A DNA stretch of 64,000 nucleotides from a virus (Duplodnaviria; Caudoviricetes): positions 85,887-149,886 of the IMG/VR virus record IMGVR_UViG_3300032270_000543. One strand, 5' to 3'. Made by a program: the position numbers and the translations under genes. Below are positions 555 to 14,524 of this stretch, piece after piece. The notes under the pieces are model-generated. The model had not been told where the DNA came from. It worked only from the letters and a program-made list of their open reading frames with translations, and ran no database searches. Positions within the stretch are counted from its first letter, which is position 1. Each line of letters starts with the position of its first letter.

Positions 555-886
555 AGCCCATTCAGATGCGGGAGGGCTAGTCCCCACGGCTTCAAGCCGC
601 CATTGCCAGTTTGTTGGCAATCATGGTTGTAGCAGTTTTTTTAACGAGGATCCACCACACGCCTCGGGCATCTCCTGCTTCAGTACTCCGCACCAGTCGA
701 TTCCTTATCGACCCCGTAAGTCCCGAAGCCTAGGACTTCGGGAGATGCCCCCGCTGCACACGGAGGACTTGACTGCGGGAAGAGGCGGGTGATGCAGTCA
801 CTCCGCATTCGCGCATCTGAGTAATGGAGTCGGGGGGATTCGAACCCCCGTGCTGTATGCGTTTTCGTCCACGATCAACAATACCA
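555..886 (-). ncRNA. ssrA: circularly permuted (two-piece) tmRNA: acceptor piece ~886-825, intervening segment 824-716, coding piece from 715, tag ANKLAMAA* at 618-592
   Basis: T-arm GGGGG-TTCGAAT-CCCCC plus CGACTCCA lies upstream of the canonical 5' end GGGGTCGATAAGGAATCGAC; 7-bp acceptor stem with G3:U70 and A73; pk1-like CCGAGG...CCTCG-TTAAAAAAA; tag GCC AAC AAA CTG GCA ATG GCG GCT TGA. Confidence 0.92.
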
Positions 887-1719: not shown

Positions 1720-2352
1720 TCAGCGGCGGCGGCGAGTTGTACCAATAAGTCCACCGATTGCCAAAAGAGAAATTGCGCCAGGTGCAGGAACCTCGTTTGC
1801 ACCGAATCCGCACCAGTCAATCAGATTTCCAATAGTGGGACCACCTGCTGCGGAAACGGCTTCAAACGCAAACCGTGTGGTGTTGCCGATTGAAATAACC
1901 GATCCGTAGTTGACTTCCCACTGCCCTGTGCCTGCCGAGAACTCCTGCGTGAACAGCGTGAAGTCATCGCCGCCGTCCCACTGCTGATCTGCACCAAGAT
2001 CCGTGATGGTGAGGCGCATGGTGTCTACACCCCAACGCCCACGGTGTGCAAAGTGCCAGTTGATGCTGTTGTTGTCACCAAGCCCACCAACATCTTGATA
2101 TAGAGTGGAAGCGTATGTAGCGTTCAGTTCGGCAAAGTTGTTGCCGTGGTACGCTTCAACGCCTTCAGTCCAACTAGACCAAATCTCAAGTGTGTTGTCC
2201 AAAGCCGTGGTTGCCCAACCGTAGTGGGGATCACCACCGTCAAAATACGAATAACTGTCAGCAGGATACGATTCAAAACTGCCGTCTACGAGATCCGCAA
2301 CTGCGGATGTGGTTACAACCGAAGCAGCAAGTGCTGCGAAAACCGTCTTCAT
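1720..2352 (-). CDS. secreted PEP-CTERM-type sorting-domain protein (beta-sandwich, carbohydrate-binding-like body)
   Basis: signal peptide MKTVFAALAASVVTTSAVA; C-terminus VPAPGAISLLAIGGLIGTTRRRR. Confidence 0.85.
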   Translation of the reverse strand: MKTVFAALAASVVTTSAVADLVDGSFESYPADSYSYFDGGDPHYGWATTALDNTLEIWSSWTEGVEAYHGNNFAELNATYASTLYQDVGGLGDNNSINWHFAHRGRWGVDTMRLTITDLGADQQWDGGDDFTLFTQEFSAGTGQWEVNYGSVISIGNTTRFAFEAVSAAGGPTIGNLIDWCGFGANEVPAPGAISLLAIGGLIGTTRRRR

Positions 2353-2368
2353 CTCTTTTCCTCTTTCC

Positions 2369-3205
2369 TTATGCGCGTCTGCGCGTATTTACTATTCCGC
2401 CCACTGCAAACACTGCAATGGTCGATGGCGAAGGGGTGGAGATCGGCTGCACCGATCCCCCGCCACCCATACCGTAGTAGTCACCAAAGCCGTAGTTGTC
2501 ACCCAACGCAATCGTTGTGGAATAAACATCAAACGGTAAAGTGCTTGGAGTCAGGAATGCCGCGTAGTTGTCTGCTGGCAGTTCTGCTGATGCAATCTCG
2601 GGCATCAGACTTTCGGGAGTTTGCGTTAAAGCCTTCACAGGGATTTTTGGTTTCTGTACAACCACCGAAACCTCGGCGGCTTCGCCCTTGCCGTCCCCTG
2701 ACGGCTTTTCCTTGAATGCTTTTGTGATATCGCCGCTGCCCTTGTCCGCAGCAGCCTGCTGCGTCATTGGTTCCTTGGAGCGATACGGCTTCCAACCGCC
2801 CATGCTGATCTTCTCGCCGCCTTTGCCGTCCTTGGGCTTGTCCTTGTCCGTGTTTGCAGGTGCCGCAGGAGCCGATGGTGCGGCACCGCCTCCCCCACCG
2901 CCCATGATTTTTTGTTGTATGCCCTGCAAGAAACCTAGTTTCTCGCCAATCTTGGCAACCGCGTCCTGACCCACAACCGTTGCTCCAACAGCCGTAGCCA
3001 GTTGGAATGCAATGAGTTGTTTCTGCAACTTTTTGAGTTTGCCGTCAGACTGTTCAGCCCGTTCCAACGCCTCACGCTCTCGCGCTGTGCGTTCTGCTTC
3101 CCGTGCTTCTTGGCATTGCTTAAGTCCCTCGCGGAGTGTGTCCCGCTCGGCATTCTTTAGTTTTTCACAATCACACGGCGAATCCTCGCTGTGTTTGTGT
3201 GCCAT
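2369..3205 (-). CDS. coiled-coil/low-complexity protein with PEP-CTERM-like C-terminal signal
   Basis: C-terminus TPSPSTIAVFAVGGIVNTRRRA; internal hydrophobic segment LIAFQLATAVGATVVG; GGAGG SD. Confidence 0.7.
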   Translation of the reverse strand: MAHKHSEDSPCDCEKLKNAERDTLREGLKQCQEAREAERTAREREALERAEQSDGKLKKLQKQLIAFQLATAVGATVVGQDAVAKIGEKLGFLQGIQQKIMGGGGGGAAPSAPAAPANTDKDKPKDGKGGEKISMGGWKPYRSKEPMTQQAAADKGSGDITKAFKEKPSGDGKGEAAEVSVVVQKPKIPVKALTQTPESLMPEIASAELPADNYAAFLTPSTLPFDVYSTTIALGDNYGFGDYYGMGGGGSVQPISTPSPSTIAVFAVGGIVNTRRRA

Positions 3206-3309
3206 CGTTCCCTGTCCTCCGTAAAAATTGGGATCAGGACGAAAAGCAAAAACTCCCGTGAAACTATTTATGTCTCACGGGAGCGCGAAGCAGCGGTTAG
3301 CCGCAATAT

Positions 3310-4212: not shown

Positions 4213-4226
4213 GGTAGTTTCGTAAA

Positions 4227-4297
4227 TAGGCGGTTCAGGTGTCGATCCTGAATGAACCTGGTATAAGCAGGTCTGCGAAGCCGTCCGCCCACCGCCC
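4227..4297 (-). tRNA. atypical tRNA with UAU anticodon (tRNA-Ile(UAU)-like)
   Basis: acceptor GGGCGGT/ACCGCCT + A73; anticodon arm ACCTG-CTTATAC-CAGGT; T-arm TCAGG-ATCGACA-CCTGA; non-canonical G8 and A54. Confidence 0.7.
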
Positions 4298-4307
4298 AGT
4301 GGATTAG

Positions 4308-13972: not shown

Positions 13973-14045
13973 TAGCACTGGTGGGAGTCGAACCCACACT
14001 AGTTCGATTTTGAGTCGAATGCCTCTGCCATTGGGCTACAGTGCC
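13973..14045 (-). tRNA. tRNA-Leu(CAA), short variable loop
   Basis: cloverleaf GGCACTG/CAGTGCT, anticodon arm TTCGA-CTCAAAA-TCGAA, T-loop TTCGACT; CCA not encoded. Confidence 0.92.
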
Positions 14046-14439: not shown

Positions 14440-14450
14440 GGTGATGGGAG

Positions 14451-14524
14451 CGTCCCTGAGTGGATTCGAACCACTGACTTATTGCTTAGAAGGCAATTAC
14501 TCTATCCAACTGAGTTACAGGGAC
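14451..14524 (-). tRNA. tRNA-Arg(TCT)
   Basis: canonical cloverleaf GTCCCTG/CAGGGAC, anticodon loop CTTCTAA, GGTTCGAATCC. Confidence 0.97.

Follow-up and report, generated by a model that had tools for sequence, protein, structure and literature searches.

A two-gene cassette of uncultured freshwater T4-like phages encodes a candidate exosortase substrate with a Glu-less sorting tail resembling that of Phycisphaerales

The last 64 kb of the 149,886-bp viral contig IMGVR_UViG_3300032270_000543 (positions 85,887 to 149,886 of this IMG/VR record; here the window, meaning the whole 64,000-nt stretch analysed) includes two adjacent minus-strand open reading frames (ORFs), pB and pA, the products of which end in tails that resemble PEP-CTERM sorting signals. 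As judged by sequence, pA is probably (at roughly 60%) a genuine substrate of a Phycisphaerales-type exosortase and is presented on the cell surface as a glycan-binding-like protein, pB being its membrane partner. An earlier note on the window (the original prediction) had described both ORFs and quoted their C-termini, and these were found to be correct in position and strand. The parts of the two genes, numbered by position in the window, are as follows.

1720-2352, minus strand: pA, ORF of 210 aa with a Shine-Dalgarno (SD)-like sequence upstream
2296-2352, minus strand: signal peptide of pA (residues 1-19), from inspection and a hydropathy peak, MKTVFAALAASVVTTSAVA with cleavage before DL
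1795-2295, minus strand: beta-jelly-roll of pA (residues 20-186), from the predicted structure and fold comparison
1723-1791, minus strand: tail of pA, VPAPGAISLLAIGGLIGTTRRRR, ending RRRR
2353-2368, minus strand: pB-pA spacer of 16 nt, inside the purine-rich SD-like stretch AAGGAAAGAGGA
2369-3205, minus strand: pB, ORF of 278 aa with an SD-like sequence upstream
Residues 1-62 of pB, minus strand: head, an N-terminal His/Cys-containing coiled-coil helix with Cys 11, 13 and 31
2966-3019, minus strand: hydrophobic segment of pB (residues 63-80), from hydropathy and the predicted structure
Middle of pB, ~160 residues, minus strand: Gly/Pro/Lys-rich, of low confidence
Ahead of the pB tail, minus strand: conserved motif FLTPSTLPFDVYSTT..GDNYGFG.YYG
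2372-2437, minus strand: tail of pB, TPSPSTIAVFAVGGIVNTRRRA, in which P-x-P is PSP and which ends RRRA

The tails were sought with a rule that combines P-x-P, an uncharged hydrophobic stretch and at least two basic residues at the end, applied to six-frame ORFs of at least 40 aa. Only pA and pB fit this rule among 1,239 ORFs of the whole contig; hence, the two adjacent matches are not due to chance, and the arrangement of Pro-x-Pro, hydrophobic helix and Arg cluster that had been predicted for both C-termini is borne out. The geometry is that of the founding description of PEP-CTERM, in which a hydrophobic stretch of ~14 residues precedes a basic cluster at the extreme C-terminus (PMC1569441). 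The commonest spacer between P-x-P and the basic cluster is 14 residues in the pA and pB families alike, and P-x-P-G lies directly before the helix in 116 of 120 phage pA proteins. However, the near-invariant Pro-Glu-Pro was not found, as pA has PAP and pB has PSP. The tripeptide in the 120 proteins is PAP in 70, PGP in 16, PSP in 12 and PTP in 11 (109 together), with PEP in one. On these sequence grounds the pA tail is filed as a variant, and not a canonical member, of the PEP-CTERM domain.

A search with sorting-signal hidden Markov models (HMMs), which the original prediction had proposed, gave a divided result. On TIGR02595 pA just reaches the cutoff (16.1 bits versus 16; 19.8 bits in a six-frame scan), whereas on PF07589 it scores 15.1 bits, under the cutoff of 20.7, and pB fails on both models. 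Matches to TIGR02595 were obtained for 7 of 18 pA family members (E up to 10), and one family member, NDB81700.1, is annotated by NCBI as PEP-CTERM.

A signal peptide of cleavable appearance is indicated by hydropathy and by a junction conserved across the pA family, in which A is followed by DL(V/I)(N/D)G(G/S)FE, and pA is the one protein for which a clear signal peptide had been claimed. By inspection and hydropathy, no further transmembrane segment lies between this N-terminal signal peptide and the tail. Structure prediction, also proposed in the original prediction, gave a CBM4/16/22-type beta-jelly-roll for the 210-aa protein, the core being a confident beta-sandwich in a model with a predicted local distance difference test (pLDDT) score of 79. 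In VIA-align comparisons the core matched the carbohydrate-binding module (CBM) CBM4-2 (4bj0) with Z 15.5 and a root-mean-square deviation of 2.7 A over 150 aligned residues, CBM16 with Z 14.0 and CBM61 with Z 13.8, and Foldseek gave a probability of 1.00 for a CBM4/16/22/61-type match. The core therefore has a CBM4/9/16/22-like (galactose-binding-domain-like) beta-jelly-roll fold, at Z 12-15.5. This suggests that pA is a glycan-binding-like or lectin-like protein, with the limitation that a shared fold by itself shows no function.

By sequence, no significant Pfam or NCBIfam model was found on the pA core, and no Pfam domain, DUF642 (PF04862) included, on the core of 18 family members; choice-of-anchor C (TIGR04362) matches one of the 18 (E 0.024). 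Neighbours of pA in the ESM Atlas are one viral cluster and bacterial PEP-CTERM/DUF642/CBM_4_9 clusters, with DUF642 in 19-38% of members, and a BFVD search gave generic CBM-like tail-fibre domains alone. The pA family comprises at least 241 clusters at 90% identity, with a mean column identity of 68%. The pA body is Thr/Ser-rich and low in Cys, the sole Cys being residue 181.

The pA core has many cellular homologs. An exhaustive profile search gave 2,769 cluster representatives, from single-domain proteins of ~230 aa to giants of 5,420 aa, and the short cellular relatives mostly carry canonical VPEP tails. Homologs in metagenome-assembled genomes (MAGs) of Planctomycetota, Rhodospirillales and Colwellia have VPEP, TEPG and IPEPG tails, and an exosortase was found in all five MAGs holding such homologs as compared with one of 14 control genomes. 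As the core homologs carry VPEP tails in exosortase-bearing genomes, the pA tail appears homologous in context to genuine PEP-CTERM tails, and the classification of pA as a PEP-CTERM-type protein is supported at the sequence level. The original prediction had assigned both proteins to this type; for pA the assignment stands, given the TIGR02595 score and the homologs with VPEP tails, and for pB it is weaker, this protein having no signal peptide, no standard HMM match and a poorly conserved tail.

Further observations concern individual members and relatives of the pA family. A Planctomycetota MAG (L042 7809-9448) encodes the pA core in two tandem paralogs that share 43% identity with pA and have canonical VPEP tails with C-terminal extensions after them, and by eye the C-terminus of a longer relative (P0175) is like a type IX secretion system sorting domain. 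The differing C-termini on relatives of the core would be choice-of-anchor behaviour. Six of 18 family members show weak local matches to a short part of the MARTX_Nterm model (best E 1.2e-5; pA itself ~12 bits against a cutoff of 700 bits), probably due to shared beta-strand repeats. In a 145-kb viral contig (L037 5995-6527), pA is split into overlapping ORFs of 165 aa and 53 aa, by a frameshift, as a pseudogene or through an assembly error. Among deposited phages, no pB homolog and no pB-pA pair were found, and matches to the pA core were confined to four unannotated records of 12-16 kb named 'Listeria phage LM 4-11-1 / 4-14-1' (OR846807.1 and three related), where a stretch is 35% identical to pA residues 46-179. 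Such matches are odd for a Gram-positive host, and the records may be contaminating contigs.

Tails of this type were further sought in GTDB genomes of Planctomycetota, Verrucomicrobiota, Alphaproteobacteria and Gammaproteobacteria (in GTDB, the last includes Burkholderiales and Methylophilales) using A3, a profile of 28 positions derived from 26 phage tails. In the Planctomycetota-wide sample, 8 of 81 genomes matched, three of them strongly, and in the order that contains these three, 56 of 61 genomes passed E up to 1e-4, the richest with 45 matches, and scores rose to 44 bits. The name Phycisphaerales was assigned to the order from one of its exosortases, which shares 100% identity with an exosortase of an NCBI 'Phycisphaerales bacterium' MAG and the named relatives of which are all Phycisphaerales, Phycisphaera or Phycisphaeraceae. 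The 35 tails read from this order (PAP in 22, PTP in 7, PGP in 3, PEP in 2 and PSP in 1) have the form (V/I)P[A/T/G]PG..ALLGLxGLVxxRRRR at the exact C-terminus. In the Verrucomicrobiota control, 11 of 81 genomes matched at E up to 1e-3; of the 23 tails read there, none has lost Glu (22 PEP, one PEA). Among the genomes sampled, Phycisphaerales alone have the Glu-less P[A/G/S/T]PG form in abundance, and the tie between the PAPG variant and Phycisphaerae claimed in the original prediction is confirmed by the contrast, at E up to 1e-4, between 56 of 61 Phycisphaerales genomes and 0 of 101 genomes of Alphaproteobacteria and 1 of 101 of Gammaproteobacteria.

As far as the scans show, the Glu-less Phycisphaerales tail is not a named NCBIfam variant. 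On host tails of the PAPG type TIGR02595 gives 20-25 bits and finds 7 in one genome (G171) versus 45 with A3, while in a PEP-type relative it gives 47 matches of up to 31.6 bits. Since the PAPG tails of the host order also score low, the borderline score of pA on this model is typical of the variant. The phage pA tails and the Phycisphaerales tails share the PAPG/PTPG/PGPG set, the spacing and the RRRR end, with scores of up to 44 bits on the phage profile. In contrast to those of the phage, the Phycisphaerales tails are cellular, occur in tens of copies per genome and are attached to unrelated passenger domains.

The four Phycisphaerales genomes examined each have three exosortase paralogs. 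One exosortase, in the region L077 715-3557 (ORF at 1444-2340) of genome G046, matches only the generic 8TM_EpsH model (135.6 bits) and reaches the cutoff of none of the named Xrt types; its neighbours are an EpsI-like gene and a glycosyltransferase gene. It may represent an unnamed type paired with the Glu-less PAPG signal. In the phage no exosortase (PF09721) was found on the whole 149,886-bp contig, which extends the original remark that none is visible in the window.

The pB and pA genes are adjacent and co-oriented in 38 of 39 IMG/VR viral loci, the exception being one where the contig end cuts pA, and they usually lie within a region of tRNA and transfer-messenger RNA (tmRNA) genes. Relatives have the two genes end to end or with an overlap of a few bases, and the pair is probably one bicistronic unit. 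Only one of 10 flanking ORFs is conserved. pB-pA is best explained as a two-gene envelope cassette that is conserved in a widespread uncultured clade of freshwater T4-like phages.

Several observations weigh against pA and pB being substrates of a Phycisphaerales-type exosortase. Hydropathy indicates no signal peptide in pB, which has an internal hydrophobic helix instead, and pB has no match in Pfam, NCBIfam (TIGR02595 and PF07589 included) or PHROG, with 0 of 15 pB family members matching PEP-CTERM models. Scores of the pB tail are uneven across the family, falling to 11 bits or less or to nothing, and about 10 of the 39 loci (L002, L006, L007, L013, L029, L031, L033, L038, L039 and L041) have a short pB with no tail. 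A tail HMM built only from host sequences (45 Phycisphaerales tails) and scanned against 2,004 frames gave 27.9 bits for pA, 18.2 bits for pB (second of the 2,004 frames) and 4.4 bits for the next ORF, but the host tails had first been retrieved with the phage-derived profile, so that the 27.9 bits of pA are partly circular; this does not apply to the pB score or to the taxonomic contrast. With respect to the host, the G+C content of the phage is 50%, and that of its relatives mostly 35-42%, as compared with 59-71% for the PAPG-type Phycisphaerales loci, a gap of 10-30 points. No spacer-like or shared DNA was found between positions 20-40 kb of the window and 201 Phycisphaerales genomes, where a shallow search (best two candidates per genome scored) gave short imperfect matches, and no homolog of the pA core was found in four Phycisphaerales genomes. 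Finally, Cyanobacteriota, Acidobacteriota and several other phyla lay outside the sampled lineages.

The host and the nature of the tails are separate questions. Read from sequence, the tail dialect of pB-pA suggests a Phycisphaerales host. It is tentatively proposed, at somewhat less than even odds, that the freshwater T4-like phages, a large and globally distributed clade, have as hosts uncultured Phycisphaerales of the plankton, perhaps the lake lineage CL500-3, copy their Glu-less signal and install a lectin-like protein on the cell surface late in infection. The alternative that the sorting-signal reading is right and the host belongs to another exosortase-bearing lineage, such as picocyanobacteria or another freshwater group, which uses or tolerates P[AGST]PG tails, is rather doubtful, and it draws on the phylogenetic surroundings of the phage. 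The gp41-type helicase of this T4-like contig is 59% identical to that of Methylophilales phage Melnitz and 53-57% identical to those of Synechococcus cyanomyophages, which makes phages of these hosts its nearest cultured relatives. The permuted tmRNA type present on the contig is found in Alphaproteobacteria, some Betaproteobacteria and Cyanobacteria. The large G+C gap and the place of Cyanobacteriota outside the sampled set likewise favour another host.

Against another host stands the near-complete lack of comparable tails in the Alpha- and Gammaproteobacteria sampled. No psbA was found on the contig, 83% complete by the CheckV estimate, and the idea of a cyanophage was set aside on that account. 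The G+C gap is large, but T4-like cyanophages show gaps of ~20 points, and the arrays of tRNAs that read A/U-ending codons are in keeping with a phage of low G+C content on a host of much higher G+C content. A phage tmRNA need not be of the same type as that of the host, as the Melnitz study shows (PMC9004378), and the tmRNA was dropped as a host marker for this reason. The labels of MAG bins holding pA family members are inconsistent (Alphaproteobacteria, Bacteroidota). One contig from a 'Bacteroidota MAG' (L041) is plainly a misbinned phage, having 16 tRNAs, a tmRNA and the pB-pA pair.

In the pB protein, the N-terminal half appears to be the core, and the tail accessory and less constrained, because the tail scores are uneven and about 10 of the 39 loci lack the tail. 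The short pB proteins are ~100-118 aa, with the Cys/coiled-coil head and one membrane helix, and their ORF runs into the start of pA. For the window's pB, AlphaFold predicted one long helix (residues 12-100, containing 63-80) and a C-terminal helix, with an overall pLDDT of 52 and values below 50 over most of residues 102-265, and all ESM Atlas matches of pB had either a score below 0.9 or a TM score below 0.4. As judged by its host-only HMM score, the pB tail of the window is similar to the host signal. Among the ESM Atlas neighbours of pB, at a low score (0.80), is an all-viral cluster of 104 members (~143 aa), 63% of which have PF07589. Virus-encoded PEP-CTERM proteins may thus extend more widely than the pB-pA clade.

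The region upstream of pB includes the following element.

3252-3284, minus strand: stem-loop with a 13-bp stem and a loop that is exactly AUAAAUA (ATAAATA at 3265-3271), with a T-run at 3242-3251

The hairpin noted earlier upstream of the pair is real (-23.8 kcal/mol; z = -5.5), and the ATAAATA motif in it lies 59 nt ahead of the pB ATG. The hairpin looks like an intrinsic terminator for upstream transcripts, the loop of which carries a T4-late-promoter-like box. Within the window TATAAATA does not occur in exact form, and the shorter TAAATA core is the enriched form. Of 51 sites with this core, 21 are followed by a same-strand gene start within 60 nt (~3% expected), and 16 of 30 distinct relatives have the core ahead of pB as compared with a background of 8%. 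Late expression of pB-pA is plausible on this sequence evidence.

A late-promoter-like motif would also suit an exosortase-independent role, in which the tails are generic C-terminal membrane anchors and the pair acts in late envelope events such as lysis timing, in the manner of holin/antiholin or spanin proteins. The layout of pB, with a cytoplasmic head, one transmembrane segment and a large periplasmic part, is like that of the T4 holin T; a search of the contig for the T-type holin (PF11031) gave no match, and the control was equally silent. In addition, Melnitz-type phages keep envelope pore genes beside ssrA that are proposed to time lysis (PMC9004378). This role is nonetheless judged unlikely, as generic anchoring does not account for the retention of P-x-P-G right before the helix in 116 of 120 pA proteins, for the homology of pA to cellular proteins with canonical PEP-CTERM tails, or for the precise match to a lineage-specific cellular sorting signal down to the terminal RRRR. 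Neither protein resembles a spanin: pA has no lipobox (the signal peptide ends in AVA before D, and the sole Cys is residue 181) and is therefore not an o- or u-spanin, and the coiled coil of pB precedes the transmembrane segment, where an i-spanin would have it after.

If pA is indeed an exosortase substrate, the following course of events can be envisaged. Transcription of pB-pA would start from a T4-type late promoter embedded in the loop of the upstream terminator. Export of pA by Sec would leave its C-terminal helix holding it in the inner membrane, with RRRR on the cytoplasmic side. The host exosortase would then recognise PAPG at the periplasmic face, cleave, and pass pA to the cell surface or the exopolysaccharide layer, by the same route as the dozens of PAPG proteins that the host itself makes. 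In that place a surface glycan would be the target of the lectin-like domain of pA. The pay-off might be receptor masking, either as late superinfection exclusion or as a means of keeping progeny from adsorbing to debris, or might be that infected cells are stuck to particles or neighbouring cells. pB would be a membrane partner with a cytoplasmic Cys/coiled-coil head, one membrane helix and a disordered periplasmic region, carrying a second, looser copy of the tail in most of the clade. As the conserved core of pB is the head and helix, it more likely escorts or regulates pA than is itself displayed.

The original prediction had proposed that the phage either hijacks or jams host sorting, with superinfection exclusion, aggregation or grazing avoidance as the suggested benefit. 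In the case of jamming, the tails would be decoys that occupy or block the host exosortase and stop the display of host surface proteins, which might explain why each cassette has two tails and why pB, with its signal anchor, looser motif and long disordered region, is an atypical substrate. However, proteins of the candidate host itself normally carry the Glu-less motif and nothing marks the tails as uncleavable, so that they look like ordinary substrates; a conserved globular CBM-like domain, such as that of pA with 68% mean column identity, would also be needless in a decoy. Jamming is accordingly regarded as very improbable.

The RNA genes of the window are listed below.

592-885, minus strand: permuted (two-piece) tmRNA, 64.2 bits on Rfam RF04321 against a gathering score of 47, with an ARAGORN tag ending in ANKLAMAA before the stop
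4226-4298, minus strand: tRNA-Ile(UAU)
13973-14045, minus strand: tRNA-Leu(CAA)
14450-14524, minus strand: tRNA-Arg(UCU)

Relatives carry up to 16 tRNAs (L041 1-7700), mostly for A/U-ending codons, and similar tmRNAs are found directly beside pB-pA in relatives, with the tags AAPMAMAA, AAPMRMAA, ANQLAMAA and GAQMRLAA. When the tmRNA was compared with phages by blastn, the conserved T-arm was the sole match. Tail-fibre proteins are also encoded on the phage contig. No PHROG family was found for pA, pB or most of their neighbours. The cassette can be compared with the CsgGF curli-pore genes that lie beside ssrA in Melnitz-type phages and pelagimyophages (PMC9004378), in that these are related T4-like aquatic phages with a two-piece tmRNA and host-envelope genes in the same region; however, the proteins are unrelated to pB and pA, and a search of the contig for CsgG, as part of a Melnitz-like curli module, found none.

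In relation to the PEP-CTERM/exosortase (EpsH) system (TIGR02595, PF07589; PMC1569441), the phage tails have the same tripartite form and pA has the signal peptide. Unlike in that system, the genes belong to a T4-like phage of lytic type that itself encodes no exosortase, the position of Glu is taken by Ala, Gly, Ser or Thr, and pB has no cleavable signal peptide and no score on the curated models. The fold of the pA core is shared with CBM4/9/16/22/61 jelly-rolls, and the core can be compared with DUF642/'choice-of-anchor C' type domains, although no significant Pfam or NCBIfam model covers it.

Phage envelope proteins that modify the surface of the infected cell by way of host sorting routes include the lipoproteins Llp of T5 and Cor of phi80 and N15, as well as Imm and Sp of T4. 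Like these, pA is a small exported phage protein that plausibly acts at the cell surface during infection. It differs in having no sequence similarity to them (no PHROG match), in its proposed exosortase route, as opposed to a lipoprotein route, and in appearing late and not early.

A full-text search of the literature found no paper describing phage- or virus-encoded exosortase substrates, the nearest mention being a PEP-CTERM domain noted in a Dehalococcoides element. If the proposal is true, pA would be the first virus-encoded exosortase substrate. Exosortase sorting is widespread and experimentally poorly characterised, and it could conveniently be probed with a viral substrate that is small and abundant and has a compact passenger domain. 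Surface lectin display would also join the ways in which phages may remodel infected cells.

The sorting-signal variants would in addition be a sequence-only predictor of host for uncultured phages, which suggests a general method whereby host lineage is read from the sorting-signal dialect of exported phage proteins. To our knowledge, no cultured lytic phage of Phycisphaerae has been described. Phycisphaerae dominate the planctomycete communities of lakes (PMC6461901). Should the tail match truly mark the host, it would tie this group to a freshwater T4-like clade that is common, with more than 240 protein clusters and 39 IMG/VR contigs.

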